Source: an uncultured Actinomycetes bacterium | GTDB taxonomy: Bacteria > Actinomycetota > Actinomycetes > Nanopelagicales > Nanopelagicaceae | Assembly: GCA_903932695.1 (NCBI GenBank) | Contig: CAIZGZ010000103.1 | Span: forward strand, 1-25,804 | Length of the DNA stretch: 25,804 bases | Direction: 5' to 3' | Shown here: positions 2,990 through 13,050 of the stretch, one piece after another | How the letters are laid out: the number at the start of each line of letters is the position of its first letter | Numbering within the stretch: position 1 is the stretch's first letter | Notes under the pieces: generated by a model | Told to the model about the DNA's origin: nothing | The model's input: the letters and a program-made list of their open reading frames with translations, nothing else | Database searches by the model: none | Program-made: the position numbers and the translations under genes

Positions 2990-4047
2990 GCCTTGAGGCT
3001 CTGAGTGAGCTCAATCCACTTATCCAAAAGTTCTAACGCGGCTCCGCTATCGACCGCATCCTTTGCCAACTGATAACCCTGCGCAACTTGCTCGTTGATC
3101 GACTTCGAGAATTCTCCGCGATAAGCAGCAATAGCGACAGCAGCGTTTAATAAGACCGCATCTCTTGCCGGCGAATGTTCGCCCCGAAGAATGTTGAGGG
3201 TTACGCCAGCGTTATATTGGGCATCTCCTCCGGTAATGCTTTCGATGGGTGCAAAGCCAATCCCCAGATCACGCGGATCAAAGAGCTCCGCCTTCTGATT
3301 CTCGGGTTGGTGAGGAGTGATCTGAATGATGGTGCTCGTCGTCGTCAGAGTGATCTCATCTAATCCATCATCGCCGCGAAAGAGGAATCCCTCGGTGCCA
3401 CGGTCAGCAAGTACCTTGGCCATCAGGGAGAGCGCGCGGGGTTTAGCCACGCCAAGGGCGATCGCTGCGGGCTTAGCGGGATTTGCCAGCGGCCCCAAAA
3501 TATTGAATACCGATGCCTGACCTAACTCTTTACGAGCTGGAGCGGCAAAGCGCATCGCGGGATGGAACTTGGGGGCAAAGCAGAAGCCGATCCCCAATTT
3601 CTCGAAACTCGTAGCCACGCCTTGGCCATCGAGATCAATATTGACCCCCAGGGCTTCTAGGAGGTCGGCTGCGCCAGAACTTGAGGAAGCCGCTCGGGCT
3701 CCGTGTTTGACCACTTTGGCACCGGCTGCCGCAGCAATGATGGCTGCGGTGCTCGAAATATTGATCGTGTTAGCACCATCGCCTCCGGTACCGACCGGAT
3801 CCACGGCTCGAGCAGCGATAGAGATCGGGGCGGCGTGGGCAAACATCACATCGAGGAAGCTCGCTACCTCCTCCGGGCTCTCACCTTTGGCCTGGACACC
3901 CAGCAAGAAGGACTTAATGTCGTCCTTAGCCGCCTGGTTCTCCAAAATCTCGTTCATGGCCCATCTGGCCTGCTCCGGTGTGAGATCTTGGCCATCGGCC
4001 AACTCCGAAATGATCAGATCCCAGCCCGGGCTCGAGAGTGTGCTCAT
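2986..4047 (-). CDS. trpD: anthranilate phosphoribosyltransferase
   Basis: DPVGTGGDG, NISS, KHGARAAS, FHPAMR, FNILGPLANP, DGLDEIT. Confidence 0.97.
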   Translation of the reverse strand: MSTLSSPGWDLIISELADGQDLTPEQARWAMNEILENQAAKDDIKSFLLGVQAKGESPEEVASFLDVMFAHAAPISIAARAVDPVGTGGDGANTINISSTAAIIAAAAGAKVVKHGARAASSSSGAADLLEALGVNIDLDGQGVATSFEKLGIGFCFAPKFHPAMRFAAPARKELGQASVFNILGPLANPAKPAAIALGVAKPRALSLMAKVLADRGTEGFLFRGDDGLDEITLTTTSTIIQITPHQPENQKAELFDPRDLGIGFAPIESITGGDAQYNAGVTLNILRGEHSPARDAVLLNAAVAIAAYRGEFSKSINEQVAQGYQLAKDAVDSGAALELLDKWIELTQSLKA

Positions 4048-4053
4048 AGCGCC

Positions 4054-4059
4054 ATAGTA
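4054..4059 (-). promoter_or_regulatory. putative -10 hexamer (TACTAT), leaderless trpD
   Basis: TANNNT lies 6 nt before ATG 4047. Confidence 0.5.
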
Positions 4060-4149
4060 ACCACCGCGTGATCAGACTCACCCAGTATTAGGGGGCCAGA
4101 CCTGCGTTCCAAGTAGGGAAAATAGGGCGAATTCGGGAATAATGCGCGT

Positions 4150-4773
4150 GTGACCACACTTGAAGCTCCAGTTAAAAACAACCGCCCGAATATTGTCGCG
4201 GTTGGAACGATCGTTTGGCTCTCTTCTGAGTTGATGTTCTTCGCCGCACTCTTTGCCATGTACTTCACCACGCGTGCAGTTCAAGGTCCAAAGGTCTGGC
4301 TTGAATCAACCGGAATGTTGAACGTGAAGTTTGCGACCATCAACACCACCGTCTTGGTGCTCTCATCGGTGACCTGCCAATTCGGCGTCTTCGCTGCTGA
4401 GCGTTTTCAAGCTCGCCGCACTGGATCGATCTGGAAGTTCTCCAAGTGGGGTATGCGCGAGTGGTTCGCACTCACATTCCTCATGGGTGCTTTCTTCATC
4501 GGCGGTCAGATCTATGAGTATGCAAACTTGGTTCGCGATGGTCTCTCACTCTCATCACGCGCATATGGTTCGGTCTTCTATTTAGCTACCGGCTTCCATG
4601 GTCTGCACGTGACAGGTGGATTGCTTGCCTTCCTCATTGTCTTAATTCGAGTCAACAAAGCGAGAAAGTTTGGTCATTCACAGGCTACAACCGCAATCGT
4701 GGTCTCGTACTACTGGCACTTTGTAGACATCGTCTGGATTGCGCTCTTCTCAACTATCTATTTGATTAAGTAA
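4150..4773 (+). CDS. ctaE: cytochrome c oxidase subunit III
   Basis: [31 protein letters not shown]; directly upstream of qcrCAB; GTG start. Confidence 0.97.
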
Positions 4774-4799
4774 CTGCGGAACTACGAGAAAAGATAAAT

Positions 4800-5606
4800 A
4801 TGACAAAGCGAATGAAGAAATTTTCTGCTCTGCGTCGCAAGCGCATCGCAGGCCCAATCCTCGTTGTGGCTGCACTCTTTACGATCGGAACAGCATTCGG
4901 AGTCGCGTCTGCGCTGCCGAGCGCTCAGCAGGTCACCAGCTCATCGACCTCTCCGCTCGTCTCTCAAGGCAAAGCGCTCTTCCTTCGAGGTTGCTCTTCA
5001 TGCCACGGACTTAATGCAGAAGGCGGAACAATCGCGCCATCATTGATCGGCGTTGGCGCAGCAGCCGTTGATTTCCAGGTTGGAACCGGTCGCATGCCGA
5101 TGGCAGATATGAGCCAGCAAGCAATGCAGAAGACTCCGCTCTATACCCCAGCAGAGACCGCAGCCCTTGCAGCGTACGTTGCATCACTCGCCCCTGGCCC
5201 TGCTTCTGTTACTAACGAAAACCTCAATTGGCAACGTGATGGCAACGTCGCAAACGGCGGACAACTCTTTAGAACTAACTGCGCCATGTGTCACAACTTT
5301 GCCGGACAAGGTGGAGCCCTTACTAACGGAAAGTACGCACCATCATTGATGGGCGTTCAACCAAAGTATGTCTACGAAGCAATGGTCACCGGTCCCCAGT
5401 CAATGCCTAAATTCACCGATGCAACAATCACACCTCAAGAGAAGCTCGACATCATCTCTTGGTTGCAAAGTGCTAATCATGAACAGAACCAAGGTGGAGC
5501 ATCACTCGGTCGCGTCGGTCCTTTCACAGAAGGTCTCGTCGCTTGGACACTCGCTATCGGATTACTTATTGGAGTTTCCGTATGGCTCGCATTGAAGGCG
5601 AAATAA
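4800..5606 (+). CDS. qcrC: cytochrome bcc complex diheme cytochrome c subunit
   Basis: Two CxxCH motifs (CSSCH, CAMCH), Met ligands in GRMPM and QSMPKF, N- and C-terminal TM helices. Confidence 0.97.
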   Translation: MTKRMKKFSALRRKRIAGPILVVAALFTIGTAFGVASALPSAQQVTSSSTSPLVSQGKALFLRGCSSCHGLNAEGGTIAPSLIGVGAAAVDFQVGTGRMPMADMSQQAMQKTPLYTPAETAALAAYVASLAPGPASVTNENLNWQRDGNVANGGQLFRTNCAMCHNFAGQGGALTNGKYAPSLMGVQPKYVYEAMVTGPQSMPKFTDATITPQEKLDIISWLQSANHEQNQGGASLGRVGPFTEGLVAWTLAIGLLIGVSVWLALKAK

Positions 5607-5607
5607 T

Positions 5608-6609
5608 ATGAGCACACAGATCGAACGTTTCGAAGATCCAGGACTACCAGAGCATGTTCATCGTTCAACCGATGTAGATGAGGCGGCTCAACGTCGCGCG
5701 GAGATTCAAATCTCCTCGCTCTTCCTTCTCTCTGCAGTTGGAACAGTTCTCACCATCGCCTCGTACATCTGGGTTCACCCTCAGGTCTATATCTACATCC
5801 CCATTCTTGGCAGCACCAATGTCCAACAAATGTGTATTGGTCTCGGTCTCACCGTTGCGACTCTCACAATTGGTCTAGGAGCAATCCAGTGGGCGAAGCG
5901 TTTGATGCCTGACACTGAACAGGTTCAAGAGCGCCACGAATTTCGTTCGACTGAGAAAGAGCGCGATGCTCTTAATAAATTGGTAAAAGAGCGCGTTGAT
6001 GAAGTGGGAATTGCACGCCGCCCATTGATCAAGCGAACACTCGCACTCGCACTCGGTGTCGTGGGTCTCTCCCCTCTCGTGCTTCTTCGCGACTTAGGCC
6101 CAATGCCTGGAAAGCAATTAGAGAAGACTGATTGGAGCGCAGGCACTCGCCTCATGCTCGATCCGGCAAATACCCCAATTCGTCCCGGCGATCTCGAAGT
6201 TGGCGCCGTTGCACAAGTCCTTCCTGAACTTCCAGCAGGCAAAGAACGCACTCTTGAAAATATCGGCACAGACGCGGTTCTCTTGATCCGTCTTCGTCCA
6301 GAGGATTTCAACCTCGATCCTGAGCGCCTATCGTGGACACACGACGGCATCATCGCCTTCTCGAAGATCTGTACGCATATGGGTTGTGCTGTTGCACTCT
6401 ATGAGCAACAGACCCACCACCTCCTATGCCCTTGCCACCAGTCGACATTCGACGTCACTCGCGCTGCAAAGGTGATCTTCGGACCAGCTGCACGTCCACT
6501 ACCGCAGCTTGCAATCACCGTCGATGCCAATGGCTATTTGGTAGCAAAGCAACCATTCACTGTCCCAATCGGACCAAGCTTCTGGGAACGGAACTCACAA
6601 AATGGCTGA
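5608..6609 (+). CDS. qcrA: cytochrome bcc complex Rieske iron-sulfur subunit
   Basis: CTHMGC and CPCHQSTF boxes; three N-terminal hydrophobic helices with RR before the third, as in actinobacterial Rieske proteins. Confidence 0.97.
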   Translation: MSTQIERFEDPGLPEHVHRSTDVDEAAQRRAEIQISSLFLLSAVGTVLTIASYIWVHPQVYIYIPILGSTNVQQMCIGLGLTVATLTIGLGAIQWAKRLMPDTEQVQERHEFRSTEKERDALNKLVKERVDEVGIARRPLIKRTLALALGVVGLSPLVLLRDLGPMPGKQLEKTDWSAGTRLMLDPANTPIRPGDLEVGAVAQVLPELPAGKERTLENIGTDAVLLIRLRPEDFNLDPERLSWTHDGIIAFSKICTHMGCAVALYEQQTHHLLCPCHQSTFDVTRAAKVIFGPAARPLPQLAITVDANGYLVAKQPFTVPIGPSFWERNSQNG

Positions 6610-8206
6610 TAAGAAGAACGCACCTACAACTCGCACCGGCAAGCTTGCTAACGCAGCTGCTAACTATGCCGATGAGCGCCTAGGAACAGCTGGTTATCTG
6701 AAGAAGAATCTCAACAAGATCTTCCCAGATCACTGGTCGTTCATGCTCGGAGAAGTTGCTCTCTACTCCTTCGTCATCTTGCTTCTTTCTGGAACATTCC
6801 TGACATTCTGGTTTGATCCATCACAGCGTGATGTCGTCTATAACGGCGCATACACTCCGCTCTCTGGCGTGAGCATGTCTGCCGCTTATGCATCAACCCT
6901 CCATCTCTCCTTTGATGTCCGTGGCGGTCTCTTGATGCGTCAGATCCATCACTGGGCAGCCCTCATCTTCATGGTGGCGATCGTTGTTCACCTCTTCCGC
7001 GTCTTCTTCACCGGTGCTTTCCGTAAGCCTCGTGAGACAAACTGGTTGATCGGTATCGGTCTACTCACATTCGGAATCATTGAAGGCTTCTTGGGCTACT
7101 CACTTCCGGATGACCTCCTTTCTGGAACCGGTATCCGCATCGCCGAGGCGATCTTGCAGGCTATTCCAGTCGTAGGTTCATACTTGGCATTCTTTGCCTT
7201 TGGCGGACCTTTCCCAGGAACTGCATTCATCCCTCGCGTCTACATGGTTCACATTCTGCTTCTCCCAGCTCTCTTCTTGGCGCTGATCACCGTTCACCTC
7301 ATGATGGTCTGGTACCAGAAGCACACTCAATTCCCTGGCCCAGGACGTAAAGAGTCAAACGTTGTTGGCTATCCGCTCATGCCGGTCTATATGGCTAAAG
7401 CTGGCGGCTTCTTCTTCATCGTCTTCGGTGTTACCGCATTCCTCGGCGCTGTTGCTTCCATCAACCCAATCTGGCTCTACGGTCCATACACTCCTGGCCA
7501 GATTTCAGCTGGTTCGCAGCCGGACTGGTACATGGGCTGGCTCGATGGTCTCGTTCGTATGGCTCCCCCACTAGAAACACACTGGTTGGGTCACACAATC
7601 TCATGGAACATTCTGCTGCCAAGCTTGGTTCTTCCTGGTTTGATCTTCGTGGGAATGACCTTCTACCCATTTATTGAAGCGTGGATCACCGGCGATAAGC
7701 GTGAACACCACATCTTGGATCGTCCTCGCAACGTACCTAACCGCACAGCGCTTGGTGCTATGTCGATCGCTTTCATGGTGATCGCACTCGCCAACGGTGG
7801 TAACGACATCATCGCCACACACTTCCACCTCACAATTAATGGGATCATGTGGTTCACCCGTATCGGGCTCTTCACCGTGCCACCCATCGTATTCATTATT
7901 ACTAAGCGCATCTGTCTCTCGCTTCAGCGGGCAGATCGTGACCTCGTGCTTCACGGTCGCGAGACCGGTCGCCTGGTAATGATGCCAAGTGGCGAGATGA
8001 TCGAAGTCCACGAACCAATCTCCGCGGAGAAGAAGTGGGTTTTGACCCAACATCAACAGCCGGATGCACTTCCGGCTCCACTGCCTGAGGCAGAGTTGGT
8101 TGGCCTTAAGGGTCGCCTACGCAAGCGCATGAATGAAGCACACAATGTTCAGGTGCCAGCTGCAACCGTGACTGATCTCAAAGAACTTGGAGATGGTCAC
8201 CACTAA
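6602..8206 (+). CDS. qcrB: cytochrome bcc complex cytochrome b subunit
   Basis: FPDHWSF, IHHWAA...VHLFR and VHILL...VHLMM heme ligands, QPDWY Qo motif, actinobacterial C-terminal extension. Confidence 0.97.
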   Translation: MADKKNAPTTRTGKLANAAANYADERLGTAGYLKKNLNKIFPDHWSFMLGEVALYSFVILLLSGTFLTFWFDPSQRDVVYNGAYTPLSGVSMSAAYASTLHLSFDVRGGLLMRQIHHWAALIFMVAIVVHLFRVFFTGAFRKPRETNWLIGIGLLTFGIIEGFLGYSLPDDLLSGTGIRIAEAILQAIPVVGSYLAFFAFGGPFPGTAFIPRVYMVHILLLPALFLALITVHLMMVWYQKHTQFPGPGRKESNVVGYPLMPVYMAKAGGFFFIVFGVTAFLGAVASINPIWLYGPYTPGQISAGSQPDWYMGWLDGLVRMAPPLETHWLGHTISWNILLPSLVLPGLIFVGMTFYPFIEAWITGDKREHHILDRPRNVPNRTALGAMSIAFMVIALANGGNDIIATHFHLTINGIMWFTRIGLFTVPPIVFIITKRICLSLQRADRDLVLHGRETGRLVMMPSGEMIEVHEPISAEKKWVLTQHQQPDALPAPLPEAELVGLKGRLRKRMNEAHNVQVPAATVTDLKELGDGHH

Positions 8207-9084: not shown

Positions 9085-9489
9085 TTAATGGTGGCTGCTT
9101 GACGCAGTAGGGCCTTCATACTCGAGCACGAAGCCAAGGATCGAGATAATCAATGAGCCAAGTGCAATCACAGTGAGCCACCAACCGAGAACCAAACCGA
9201 GTCCCATGGCACACGCTGATAGTCCCAGCGGCAATGGCCACCATGAATGTGGTGAGTAGAAGCCAAGCTCTCCGGCGGAATCCGCGATCTCGCCCTCAAG
9301 ATTATCTTCAGGCAACATTCCCTGGCGCTTATCGCTAAACCAGAGATAGAAACCCACCAACGAAGCGAAGCAGGCTGCTAGGGCAATACCGGTGATACCG
9401 AGGGCTTCTCCACCTACCTTGTAGTAGATGACGTCAACGATCGCATAGAAGATCGCTAACCCAACAAAGAGTCTGTAGGCGGTTTTCAC
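9085..9489 (-). CDS. ctaF: cytochrome c oxidase subunit 4 (actinobacterial CtaF)
   Basis: LPEDNLEGEIADSAGELGFYSPHSWWPL signature; hydrophobic; GTG start directly after the ctaD stop. Confidence 0.95.
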   Translation of the reverse strand: MKTAYRLFVGLAIFYAIVDVIYYKVGGEALGITGIALAACFASLVGFYLWFSDKRQGMLPEDNLEGEIADSAGELGFYSPHSWWPLPLGLSACAMGLGLVLGWWLTVIALGSLIISILGFVLEYEGPTASSSHH

Positions 9490-11157
9490 TTAGTGGCCTT
9501 CCGTATGGATATCTGGGTAGTGAAGGTCGAATGCTGGGCGCTCAGAACGGATGCGCGGCATTGACAAGAAGTTGTGGCGAGGTGGCGGACATGAAGTCGC
9601 CCACTCGAGCGATGCGCCATAACCCCAAGGATCATCGACTGTGACCTTTGGTGCCTTACGGCTGATCCAGACGTTGAGGAGGAATGGGAGCATGGAGAGC
9701 GCCAAGAGGAATGATCCGATGGTGGAGACCATGTTGAGAGTGGTAAAGCCATCAGATGCTAGGTAGTCCGCGTAACGGCGAGGCATTCCCTTGATTCCAA
9801 GCCAGTGTTGAACAAGGAAGGTGAGGTGGAAGCCGAAGAAGAGGGTCCAGAAGTGGATCTTTCCAAGACGCTCGTTGAGCATATGGCCAGTCATCTTTGG
9901 CCACCAGAAGTAGAAGCCGCCGAACATTGCGAACACCACTGTTCCAAAGAGAACGTAATGGAAGTGAGCTACAACGAAGTATGACGCTGAAACCGCAAAG
10001 TCCATTGGTGGGCTAGCAAGAATAATTCCGGTCAATCCACCGAAGAGGAATGTGACGAGGAAGCCGAGAATAAAGAGCATTGGTGTCTCAAAGGTAACTG
10101 CACCACGCCACATAGTTCCGATCCAGTTGAAGAACTTCACGCCGGTAGGAACACCGATCAAGAAGGTCATAAAGGAGAAGAATGGCAAGAGCACTTGTCC
10201 GCTCGCGAACATATGGTGCGCCCACACTGCGACAGAGAGAGCTGCGATACCAATTGTTGCTGCGATCAAACCCTTGTAACCAAAGATTGGCTTACGGCTA
10301 AAGACCGGAAGAATCTCACTGGCGATACCGAAGAATGGCAGAGCCAAGATATAGACCTCTGGGTGGCCGAAGAACCAGAAGAGGTGTTGCCAGAGCATCG
10401 CTCCGCCATTTGCTGGATCGAAGAGATGTGAACCGAAGATACGGTCCGACTCGAGTCCGAGCAACGCAGCTGCTAGTGGTGGGAAAGCAAGTAGAACCAA
10501 GATTGATGTGAGGAGAACGTTCCAGGTAAAGATCGACATACGGAACATCGTCATTCCTGGTGCGCGCATTGTGAAGATCGTCGTAATGAAGTTCACGCCA
10601 CCAAGAATTGTTCCCAGACCTGAAATTGCAAGACCGATAACCCAAAGATCGCCACCAATTCCAGGTGAGTACTGTGAGTTAGCAAGTGGTGCATATGCGG
10701 TCCAGCCGAAAGATGCCGCTCCGCCTGGGCTTAAGAATCCGCCGAAAGCCATGAGCCCACCGAAGAGGTAGAGCCAGTACGAGAGCATGTTGAGTCGTGG
10801 GAATGCAACGTCAGCCGCACCAATCTGTAGCGGCATGATCACGTTCGCAAAGCCAACAAAGAGTGGTGTTGCAAACATCAGGAGCATAAGCGTTCCGTGC
10901 ATTGTGAAGATCTGGTTGTACTGCTCAGTCGACATAAATTGCAGACCAGGGCGAGCCAATTCAGCACGAAGCATCAGCGCAAGTACGCCGGCTACGAGGA
11001 ACCAGATAAATGATGTCGAAAGGTAGAGATAACCGATCGTCTTGTGATCGGTCGAGGTCACCCACTTAACAAAGAGTCGACCCTTGCTCGCGCTCTTCGC
11101 CTTTGGCTGGGTATAACCAGCTGAGGTCGCGATCTGTGGTTCTGCGAATGTAGTCAT
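9490..11157 (-). CDS. ctaD: cytochrome c oxidase subunit I (aa3, A1 type)
   Basis: [58 protein letters not shown]- and K-channel residues are present. Confidence 0.98.
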
Positions 11158-11921
11158 TATGCAGCCGCCTTAAGTGTGTTGATATAGGACTGATACTGAG
11201 CTGGAGTTACAACCTTGACTGAGAAGAGCATTTGAGAGTGGTTGCGACCACAGAGGATGTTGCAACGACCTGGATAAGTACCGAGCTTGGTGCCCGCAAA
11301 CTCCAGATGATTGGTTACTCCTGGGAGAGCTTGTACTTGAATCATGAACGCTGGGATCCAGAAACCGTGATCGACATCTGTAGAGGTGATCGTGAAGAGA
11401 ACTTTCTGGCCAAGTGGCATGTAGATCACTGGTGGTTGCGCAGGGGTGCCAGTGACAACAGTGTTAGGGCCAGTGCCGGCGTCGTCATAACCGATCTGCC
11501 ATGACCACTGTTGTGCATTGACATGAATATTATGAGGAGCCGTCGAATATGAATCGACCTTGGTGATCTTTGATTCATCACGCGCGGTATAGAAGAAGAG
11601 CCCTGCGACGATAATGAAAGGGATTAGCGTGTAAGCGATCTCAACTGGGACGTTGTATTGGGTCTGCTTAGGAAATTCTTCGCTCTTCTTACGATGAAAG
11701 AAGACCGGCCACATGATGAGAACAAAAGTGAATACTCCGACAAATCCGGCAGCGATCCATGACCAGTACCAGAGCGGACCGGAGATGGTGTTGACGCTCG
11801 AGACATTCTTATCAAAGCCAAGACCTGAGTAGTTCTTGAGGGATAGACGCGAGACGACATACAAGGTCAGAGCCACAAGCGTGGCGATGAGGATTCGGGC
11901 GGAACGCTTATTTTGACGCAT
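11157..11921 (-). CDS. ctaC: cytochrome c oxidase subunit II (254 aa)
   Basis: Two TM helices plus an N-terminal hydrophobic segment, [14 protein letters not shown] and [12 protein letters not shown] CuA ligands. TAATG overlap with ctaD. Start moved to ATG 11921. Confidence 0.95.
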
Positions 11922-11927
11922 GGGAGA

Positions 11928-11933
11928 AGAATA
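11928..11933 (-). promoter_or_regulatory. putative -10 hexamer (TATTCT), leaderless ctaCDF
   Basis: TANNNT lies 6 nt before ATG 11921. Confidence 0.55.
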
Positions 11934-11966
11934 ACTGCCCCGCTCGCATCTACGCCTCACAGGGGG

Positions 11967-11972
11967 TACCGT
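11967..11972 (+). promoter_or_regulatory. putative -10 hexamer (TACCGT), leaderless desulfurase-like gene
   Basis: TANNNT lies 7 nt before GTG 11980. Confidence 0.45.
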
Positions 11973-11979
11973 TCTAAGC

Positions 11980-13050
11980 GTGGGTTCAATCACAGGCTTA
12001 GGGAGCCACTTTCAGAGCGAGCTCCCCCTTCATCCCAAGGCGGCGGAGTTCCTCGACGAGGCCTTTTCCGGTGGCTGGGCTAGCCCGGCCAAGATCCACC
12101 AACCTTCTAGGCGCACCGCGCGGCTGCTCAACGAAGCCAAGGAGATCTTTGCCCATCGACTCGATCTCAATCTCGATGAGATCCACTTTCTAGGCGATAC
12201 TCCCCTCGCCTTCCACCTGGGAATCTCCGGGTTGCTCGCGCCAGCCGGACGGGTCTTCTACCCTCAGACCGCGCGCTCGATGGCCTACGCGGTGGCGCAC
12301 TCCCATCCCAACCAGATGATCCCGGTCGACTCCCATGGCCTCTGGCAGGTTCCAAGCCCCGAGAGCGGAGCGAACGACCAAGACCTCTTCGTCTGGCAAG
12401 AGGTCAATCCAGAGACTGGCGTGAAAGTACCCGCGAGCCAGGAGTTTGTCGGAAAGATCTTTGTCGACGCAGTGAACTCGCATGAACCGATCTCTCACCC
12501 ATGGCATGGCGCGATCTGGGATTCACGGGCTTGGCAGGGTCCAGCTGGACTCTCCCTCTTCGCGCTCAAACGAAGCGCCGAATGGACGAATCCTCTTCCC
12601 CACAATGACACGAAGCCGACATCCGGGAATTTCTCTATTCCGTTAACTGTGGCAAGTGCGATCGCACTGGAGTCATACGCTGCCGAATACACCGAGGCTA
12701 CTTCGCATCTCGCAGCGCTTAATCAGCAAGTCAGAAAATTTGTTGCTGAGCATTTTCCAGGCGGCCATGTTGCAGCCACAAGCGACATAGCCATGCCCCA
12801 TCTGATTACTTTCACTATTCCGGGGGTTGATTCCCAATGGTTAGTCAATGAACTTGATCGTCGCGGAATCAGTGTTGATACCGGATCAGCGTGCATCTCC
12901 ATGAACATGCAACCAAGTCATGTCCTTGCCGCAATGGGTCTTCCCGTAACCGGAAACATTCGATTGAGGTTGCGAGCCGATCACAGTGAAGCTGAGCTTC
13001 ACCTACTCCTTCGTGCAGTGAAAGAAGTTAGCGACCAATTCTTGGCATAA
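11980..13050 (+). CDS. class V aminotransferase-fold, cysteine desulfurase (NifS/IscS)-like protein with degenerate PLP site
   Basis: N-terminal PLHP...WASPAKIH...AR.LL; QEVNPETGV; GISVDTGSAC...PSHVLAAMG...NIRL. The canonical SAHK lysine motif reads DSRA. Confidence 0.85.
   Translation: MGSITGLGSHFQSELPLHPKAAEFLDEAFSGGWASPAKIHQPSRRTARLLNEAKEIFAHRLDLNLDEIHFLGDTPLAFHLGISGLLAPAGRVFYPQTARSMAYAVAHSHPNQMIPVDSHGLWQVPSPESGANDQDLFVWQEVNPETGVKVPASQEFVGKIFVDAVNSHEPISHPWHGAIWDSRAWQGPAGLSLFALKRSAEWTNPLPHNDTKPTSGNFSIPLTVASAIALESYAAEYTEATSHLAALNQQVRKFVAEHFPGGHVAATSDIAMPHLITFTIPGVDSQWLVNELDRRGISVDTGSACISMNMQPSHVLAAMGLPVTGNIRLRLRADHSEAELHLLLRAVKEVSDQFLA

Follow-up and report, generated by a model that had tools for sequence, protein, structure and literature searches.

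Probable ancestral loss of the Mg2+/Mn2+ site in the aa3-type cytochrome c oxidase of most Nanopelagicaceae

The closest described relatives of the oxidase considered here are the solved aa3-type enzymes of Mycobacterium smegmatis (6ADQ/6HWH/7RH5), Mycobacterium tuberculosis (8HCR) and Corynebacterium glutamicum (7Q21/7QHM), and the subject of the present work is the orthologous gene pair ctaD and ctaC, encoding subunits I and II, in a stretch of 25,804 nucleotides from an uncultured member of the Nanopelagicaceae (contig CAIZGZ010000103.1; this whole stretch is hereafter called the window). In a C. glutamicum structure obtained by cryo-electron microscopy, an Mn2+ ion was modelled in a water-filled cavity with Asp391 of CtaD and Glu287 of CtaC taking part in the hydrogen bond network, and Glu287 was proposed as the start of the proton exit route (PMC8795186), while in a second structure from the same species Mg2+ was modelled at the same site (bioRxiv 2021.06.16.448340). 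In the bovine enzyme, the carboxyl of E198 binds Mg and its carbonyl binds CuA, and the residue moves with the redox state (PMC10194837). The solved mycobacterial CtaD chains read DFHVTDSYF at the aligned segment, and the CuA loop of the solved mycobacterial and corynebacterial CtaC chains reads C[AT]EMCG or CVEMCG. CtaD of the window aligns end to end with these enzymes (E 3e-271 against the M. smegmatis chain 6adq_F) and has in common with them its redox ligands, both proton channels (D and K), the family of subunit IV and the gene set, ctaC-ctaD-ctaF with ctaE-qcrCAB nearby. The solved enzymes, however, carry Asp in subunit I and Glu, Lys and Asp in subunit II where the window has Ala, Ile, Gln and Gln.

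What the Mg/Mn ion and its water cluster do is debated, with a clamp between subunits I and II, an exit for water and protons and a store for pumped protons as proposals (PMC12901375, PMC10194837). This debate is about 30 years old and has until now drawn its evidence from two sources, single point mutants and the ba3 oxidase, a distant enzyme of the B family. Mutants of the Rhodobacter sphaeroides and Paracoccus denitrificans aa3 oxidases (H411/D412 in subunit I; E254/D229 or E218/D193 in subunit II) reportedly lose Mn/Mg binding, according to work associated with Hosler, Ferguson-Miller, Witt and Ludwig in the 1990s-2000s, and are said to retain substantial activity, the metal being perhaps dispensable. 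These mutants represent single laboratory changes in metal-adapted enzymes, whereas the set described here involves several residues, is charge-balanced and has been fixed in nature. The quinol oxidases bo3 of Escherichia coli and aa3-600 of Bacillus subtilis belong to the A family and oxidise quinol with neither an Mg site nor CuA; unlike them, the window enzyme has a complete CuA site and adjoins a bcc complex, and oxidases of these two types are more distant matches of CtaD among the solved chains. In Thermus thermophilus ba3 (1EHK, 1XME, 3S8F), the water cluster above the haem a3 propionates is free of Mg, and in cbb3 oxidases a Ca2+ ion sits in the equivalent cluster, held by different ligands (PMC12901375). 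The present case contributes an A1-type oxidase from nature that has lost its metal ligands together with their charged shell, as one set, while its D and K channels are intact. Full-text searches for the Nanopelagicales oxidase and Mg-site residues found no published description of this state.

Replacement of the metal ligands and of their charged shell

Both genes lie on the minus strand, ctaC at 11157..11993 (subunit II with a CuA domain, Pfam COX2, open reading frame of 278 residues with a GTG start) and ctaD at 9490..11157 (subunit I of 555 residues, Pfam COX1, E 4.9e-161). In CtaD, the codons of D386-F-A388-V-S390-A391 (9985..10002, minus strand) translate with Asp at 10002-10000, Ala at 9996-9994, Ser at 9990-9988 and Ala at 9987-9985, and residues 386, 390 and 391 are equated with bovine D364, H368 and D369 because helix X is ungapped from both haem His to this segment. 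A391 stands in the place of the Mg/Mn-binding Asp of subunit I (D369) and A388 where His is common in actinobacteria, while the Asp equivalent to D364 is retained. Elsewhere in CtaD, A318 (10204..10206, minus strand) occupies the bovine T294 position, a listed residue of the water cluster; other actinobacteria have Val here, and Thermus ba3 likewise has Ala. In CtaC, translation and alignment of the CuA loop C244-N245-I246-L247-C248-G-R-N-H252-S-Q-M255 (11229..11264, minus strand; Cys 11264-11262, Ile 11258-11256) put I246 at the position of the Mg-binding Glu, bovine E198, and N245 at that of S197, replacing Ala/Ser. The stretch Q219-V-Q221 (11331..11339, minus strand) replaces a conserved Lys and Asp (bovine K171 and D173, the latter listed in the water cluster), and the CuA ligand H209 (bovine H161) is followed by G210 (11364..11369, minus strand) at the bovine S162 position, which is Gly as in Thermus ba3 (G115). 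The codons of the Ile and of the CtaD segment had been singled out in an initial annotation of the window, and translation confirms them.

In order to place these residues, the published list of 23 bovine water-cluster residues with their Rhodobacter, Paracoccus, yeast and Thermus ba3 equivalents (PMC12901375, Table 1B) and the neighbouring Lys were mapped onto CtaD and CtaC alignments and counted in the clade bearing the substitutions (n=17), in its sister genus g8 (n=3) and in other actinobacteria (70 CtaD loci, 51 of them with adjacent CtaC). Among 80 loci fetched by CtaD, DFAVSAS goes together with CN[IM]xC in each of the ten nearest; the remaining 70 all have the Asp (70/70), and their adjacent CtaC all read CxExC (51/51), which together with the solved chains bears out the actinobacterial motif given in the initial annotation. 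At the D369 position, the clade has Ala in 17 of 17 and g8 has Asp in all three; at E198, the clade has Ile (13) or Met (4), and g8 (3) and the others (51) have Glu. The charged shell follows the same division, with D173 being Gln in the clade (17), Asp in g8 (3) and Asp in the others (51), and K171 being Gln (17), Lys (3), and Lys (50) or Arg (1), respectively. The S197 position is Asn in the clade (17) and Ala in g8 (3) and in 46 of the others, S162 is Gly (16) or Ser (1) in the clade and Ser in g8 (3) and in 42 others, and T294 is Ala (16) or Thr (1) in the clade and Val in g8 (3) and in 56 others. R178 is mostly Val in the clade, Arg in g8 (3) and variable in the others, and D364 is Asp (12) or Asn (5) in the clade, Asp in g8 (3) and Asp in all 70 others. 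A wider set of subunit II sequences gave the same picture, since CN[ILM]LC was found in the query and in all of its 120 best CtaC homologues from a collection of 5.8 billion proteins; in these 121 sequences, K171 is Gln and S197 is Asn throughout (121/121), S162 is Gly in 117, and D173 is Gln in 112 and Glu in 9.

The initial annotation had read Ile, Ser and Ala as departures at three bovine positions. The Ile at E198 and the Ala at D369 are indeed specific to the clade, but Ser at H368 is a feature of the whole phylum (Ser in 59 and Thr in 9 of the 70 other loci). It had also pointed to the loss of a His two residues further upstream, which turns out not to be special, this position often being Gln, Pro, Ala or Asn instead of His in actinobacteria that keep the Asp.

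Apart from these positions, the redox ligands and proton channels are intact, as had been annotated. CtaD has the equivalents of the haem and CuB ligands H61, H240, H290, H291, H376 and H378 (invariant in 90 aligned CtaD where tabulated), the A1 signature GHPEVY with E267 and Y269 corresponding to the D-channel Glu E242 and the cross-link Tyr Y244, the further D-channel residues D116, N105 and N123 (D91, N80 and N98), the K-channel residue K341 (K319) and the equivalents of the Arg pair R438/R439. The CuA ligands of CtaC are likewise complete (H209, C244, C248, H252 and M255, bovine H161, C196, C200, H204 and M207). Orthology is indicated by the Pfam matches to COX1, COX2, COX3 and subunit IV, by the nearby qcrCAB and by the position of both trees within actinobacterial orthologs, and only at the non-redox metal site does the enzyme depart, with Ala391, Ile246 and the replaced second-shell Asp and Lys. 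A-type cytochrome c oxidases generally conserve this site, although catalysis does not require it. The sequence thus classes the window enzyme as an actinobacterial CtaCDEF aa3-type (A1) oxidase of a bcc-aa3 supercomplex, for which haem A, activity and pumping are predicted.

That a residue pair invariant in all other sampled actinobacterial orthologs has been lost could be taken as a sign of a decaying or non-functional oxidase. Such decay is hardly credible at all, as the redox ligands and channel residues are all intact, the frames are open in about 200 genomes with synonymous turnover and a conserved protein, and many complete genomes of aerobes encode no haem-copper oxidase but this one. 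The genome to which the window belongs, a metagenome-assembled genome (MAG) of 1.19 Mb in 226 contigs, carries a single ctaD and a single ctaC, and neither a second haem-copper oxidase nor cytochrome bd was found in this 94.8% complete assembly. Many single-contig or complete genomes of the family also have a single haem-copper oxidase subunit I. The predicted oxidase must be functional, since no other terminal oxidase was found here and since many aerobic relatives with complete genomes have no other haem-copper oxidase.

The likeness to Thermus ba3 proposed in the initial annotation extends beyond the CN..C loop. The window and ba3 share three cluster residues, namely the Gly after the CuA His (G115 in ba3), the Asn after the first CuA Cys (N150) and the Ala at the T294 position (A286), and the E198 and D369 positions are non-acidic in both (Q151 and N377 in ba3, the hydrophobic I246 and A391 in the window), so that G210, N245, I246 and A391 stand against G115, N150, Q151 and N377. 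On the other hand, ba3 keeps a Glu (E126) where the window has Gln. It is also a B-family enzyme without a D channel and with a short single-helix subunit II, whereas the window keeps GHPEVY and the D91, N80 and N98 equivalents, the alignment of its subunit II with two-helix actinobacterial CtaC covers both the N-terminal transmembrane region and the CuA domain, and its nearest solved chains are actinobacterial CtaD. The shared residues are a likeness of mechanism and not a sign of B-family membership, and the resemblance is convergent rather than due to descent.

Taken together, the residues probably reflect an ancestral loss of the Mg2+/Mn2+ site with its charged second shell in most Nanopelagicaceae, with the absence of the metal, its structural replacement and the exit chemistry being predicted from sequence. 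With Ala and Ile/Met at both direct ligand positions, canonical binding of the metal would be impossible. The Mg2+ and its two carboxylates, as well as the Lys-Asp pair, would each have been exchanged for neutral residues, leaving the buried pocket near neutral without the metal, and the small hydrophobic side chains of Ile and Ala would fill the former metal position. The amides of the two Gln and the Asn, along with the retained Arg pair, Tyr129, Gln232 and the haem propionates, may then organise the water above the haem a3 propionates, as in ba3. The backbone carbonyl at position 198 would still be available to CuA, and nothing would change in the way electrons enter, in O2 reduction or in proton uptake through the D and K paths. 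Pumped protons and product water would leave by a water-lined route free of carboxylates and not by the Glu exit proposed for Corynebacterium.

Distribution and single origin of the substitutions

The nearest CtaD loci in a species-level genome collection are Nanopelagicaceae-type freshwater MAGs and isolates. A family sample was searched with DNA patterns, consisting of 201 genomes of the order, all of one family and spread over 13 genera. The Ala pattern of CtaD was present in 188/201 genomes and the CtaC pattern CNxxCGxxHxxM in 195/201, the full substitution set being found in 12 of the 13 sampled genera of Nanopelagicaceae. The same state in about 190 genomes rules out an assembly or sequencing artefact. 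Most of the misses outside g8 are partial genes or small variants (YFIV; Asn for the first Asp), whereas neither pattern occurs in g8 (0/3 each), whose sequences show the ancestral state, DFPVSDSYF with CAELCG, and also keep the Lys and Asp. In a class sample, the Asp pattern was seen in 245/286 genomes outside the family and in 0/15 within it, and the Ala pattern in 0/286 and 15/15, respectively; the 286 genomes include four unpublished ones (G620, G648, G654 and G644) that affect the Asp tally only, the counts without them being 241/282 and 0/282. The Ala pattern was also absent from the 400 other genomes of a phylum sample. The possibility that the same substitutions are common in other actinobacterial aa3 oxidases is thereby answered in the negative for the genomes sampled.

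This uniqueness holds for actinobacterial CtaCD orthologs and not for all bacteria. When the CuA domain was compared with its 150 nearest clusters at 50% identity, 144 of these bore the CuA motif, and 42 of the 144 were without the Glu. Several of these are a second CtaC paralogue of the same family, as revealed by scanning genome contigs with P0130, and the non-Glu CuA proteins P0129, P0136, P0143, P0177 and P0189 lie on contigs of 1.5-3.6 kb that end before the subunit I motif. The substitutions are also a warning not to rely on the residues of the metal site as universal markers when A-type oxidases are annotated.

In a tree of 44 CtaD sequences, the family is supported by a Shimodaira-Hasegawa-like approximate likelihood ratio (SH-aLRT) of 100, and all 17 sequences with Ala together have the three g8 sequences with Asp as their sister group (support 81). 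The CtaC tree has the same topology (SH-aLRT 96 at the family node, 100 at that of the non-Glu clade). One change suffices on each tree, consistent with a single origin in a common ancestor of most Nanopelagicaceae, which is what the two trees show. The length of the stem branch differs between the two trees, 0.031 for CtaD being short and 0.33 for CtaC long. These trees also bear on the idea that the CuA subunit is foreign, taken over from a lineage whose subunit II is ba3-like and free of Mg, and that CtaD adapted to it afterwards. The ba3-like CN..C loop and HG motif would fit such an acquisition, as would the non-Glu loops of the CuA clusters above. Nevertheless, the CtaC tree puts the clade within actinobacterial CtaC as sister to the canonical genus and several of the non-Glu clusters are the family's own second paralogue. 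The mirrored CtaC and CtaD trees with a canonical genus as sister exclude a foreign replacement of ctaC, and this scenario is regarded as highly improbable.

The losses are concentrated in the cluster. A strict loss rule was applied, under which the ancestral residue has to be at least 80% conserved elsewhere, common to all g8 and absent from the clade. Only 2 of 548 CtaD positions pass it (V318A and D391A), both belonging to the published cluster list, and 6 of 250 CtaC positions do so, three of them listed and a fourth being the adjacent Lys. The joint hypergeometric p for this concentration is about 7e-7, a rough value, as the test assumes independence of sites and the residue list was picked with the first two hits already in hand. 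The new residues have since been maintained. All four Ala codons occur at residue 391 across the family, the new Gln and Asn residues are likewise encoded by either of their two codons, and the Ser after Ala391 alternates between TCN and AGY. With synonymous sites mixed and amino acids fixed, the new state is thus kept by purifying selection. The coordinated and selected loss in two subunits put forward in the initial annotation is therefore supported by the 12 of 13 genera, the single branch on each tree, the accompanying neutral replacements at listed cluster positions, the concentration in the cluster and the codon turnover, the absence of the metal itself being a prediction. As an observation apart, D364, the partner of a haem a3 propionate, has become Asn in several members of at least three genera (L087, L095-L098; LNF[AS]VSAS), which suggests that the loss of charge around the old metal site is continuing.

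Cause of the loss and points that weigh against it

As to the cause, a compensatory cascade is most likely, in which a first hit would have abolished metal binding and neutralising substitutions would have followed. A selectively neutral loss, by drift in a small, streamlining ancestor with compensations afterwards and with reversal requiring several simultaneous changes, concerns the cause alone and is compatible with the proposed mechanism. It would agree with the activity said to be kept by the Rhodobacter and Paracoccus mutants, with the genome sizes of the clade (1.1-2.2 Mb) set against those of the canonical sister genus (1.8-1.9 Mb), and with the freshwater actinobacteria L019, L038, L071 and L082, which retain the Asp and, where ctaC is in the locus, the Glu. 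Against it, the Asp and Glu that are universal in the other actinobacterial orthologs imply strong constraint elsewhere, the CtaD stem branch is nearly without other change, and three residues converge on ba3 identities. Neutral loss is accordingly considered possible, though somewhat doubtful.

A more tentative and rather unlikely view holds that the metal-free, uncharged cluster is an adaptation that makes assembly and stability independent of external divalent cations and also alters the exit of protons and water. In cells with no outer membrane living in very dilute water, a metal and carboxylates reachable from the outer face would have been removed and, if this were true, a measurable effect on the H+/e- stoichiometry or on back-leak would follow. 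The four freshwater loci just mentioned weaken this dilute-water rationale; because they keep the site, habitat alone does not force the loss. The metal economy suggested in the initial annotation is implausible by our own reasoning, one ion per enzyme being negligible next to the Mg bound to ribosomes and nucleotides.

Instead of being lost, the site might have been remodelled, so that Mg2+, Ca2+ or Na+ is still bound through Q219, Q221, N245, D386, the haem propionates and, in this genus, D208. This last residue (11370-11372) immediately precedes the CuA His and matches bovine L160. It is Asp in 50 of the 121 nearest CtaC and Val in 69; clade members without the Asp have Val/Ile, and most other actinobacteria have Ile. 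Three oxygen-donating side chains arose together around the old site, D364 is kept in 12 of the 17 clade loci, and the Ca2+ of cbb3 oxidases offers a precedent for other ligands. However, both direct carboxylate ligands have given way to the non-coordinating Ile/Met and Ala, D208 is missing from most of the clade, D364 itself is Asn in several members, and Thermus ba3, the nearest parallel with the same Gly, Asn and Ala, holds no metal there. Remodelling is consequently judged improbable.

Several observations nonetheless weigh against the proposed loss of the metal site, or against parts of it, and are gathered here. The new carboxylate of D208 is found at the level of the genus and adjoins the former metal site, and D208, the mostly kept D364 and the three new amide oxygens could in principle hold a cation. 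The status of the enzyme as the only oxidase is provisional, given the 94.8% completeness and 226 contigs of the MAG, and a second oxidase operon is present in most genomes of its genus. In the second oxidase of these relatives, Gly at the D369 position is combined with a kept Glu, so that the two columns are uncoupled there. Coupling is not general across haem-copper oxidases, as L111/L112 show too: subunit I keeps H368 and D369 (DFFTHDTYF) although subunit II has lost the Glu.

The subunit II of L111/L112 (about 4000-6900), which belong to an uncultured freshwater actinobacterial lineage and came to light when genome contigs were scanned with P0136, reads CSQLCG with E198Q, K171S, D173Y and Gly at S162. 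On sequence grounds this appears as a partial and independent remodelling of the same cluster.

The Nanopelagicaceae are the most abundant family of freshwater bacterioplankton. The case offers a recipe of about six residues for a metal-free site, together with a natural control in the sister genus and cultivable organisms; should the adaptive view be true, the family and its canonical sister genus would provide a natural comparison for settling what the Mg-water cluster does.

Gene neighbourhood, additional oxidases and minor observations

The stop of ctaC and the start of ctaD share one base at 11157 according to the coordinates of their reading frames. The true start of ctaC is probably the ATG at 11921 (residue 25, MRQNK..., giving 254 residues) rather than the GTG at 11993, the former being preferred because most CtaC homologues have 248-255 residues. 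Directly downstream of ctaD lies ctaF (9085..9489, minus strand; actinobacterial oxidase subunit IV, Pfam Cyt_c_ox_IV, E 6.6e-40). On the plus strand, 4150-8206 holds subunit III of the oxidase and the partner bcc complex, with ctaE at 4150-4773 (Pfam COX3), qcrC at 4800-5606 (Pfam dihaem cytochrome c), qcrA at 5608-6609 (Pfam QcrA_N and Rieske) and qcrB at 6602-8206 (Pfam cytochrome b). All cultured isolates of Nanopelagicales encode cytochrome c oxidase with O2 as terminal acceptor, and cytochrome bd is present in some only (PMC12817590).

A second haem-copper oxidase operon occurs in most genomes of the same genus and in some other genera (L083 4366-8369; L084, L085, L092-L094), and was not found in the assembly of the window. 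Its subunit I has about 630 residues, is 41% identical and reads YLHGSMY/FVTAHFH, with His368 kept and Gly at the D369 position. Its subunit II reads CAELCGLYHAYM, with the Glu, Lys and Asp kept, and the operon further includes a COX3-like gene and an upstream protein of 247 residues.

Some members of the family have, in addition, the stand-alone second CuA subunit II paralogue, which has about 210-227 residues (L102 3501-4130, L103 960-1589, L104/L105 about 7001-7660) and is absent from the window. It lies beside qcrCAB or a few kb from ctaCD, is without the Glu (CNIQCGRGH/CNFVCGREH) and has its Lys/Asp positions altered or swapped. Double pattern matches in one genus of the family sample probably reflect this paralogue.

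Other changes separate the family as a whole, canonical genus included, from other actinobacteria. CtaC of the window is 60-80 residues shorter than the mycobacterial and corynebacterial chains and is without their internal insertion; the family lacks this CuA-domain insertion of about 50 residues throughout, as well as the C-terminal tail present in many other actinobacteria. In CtaD, 70/70 other actinobacteria have Pro beside the Asp at the entrance of the D channel (GAPD), where the family, its canonical sister genus included, has Ala throughout (GAAD; 10813-10815 in the window), and a second family-wide change replaces Ala by Gly at residue 335.

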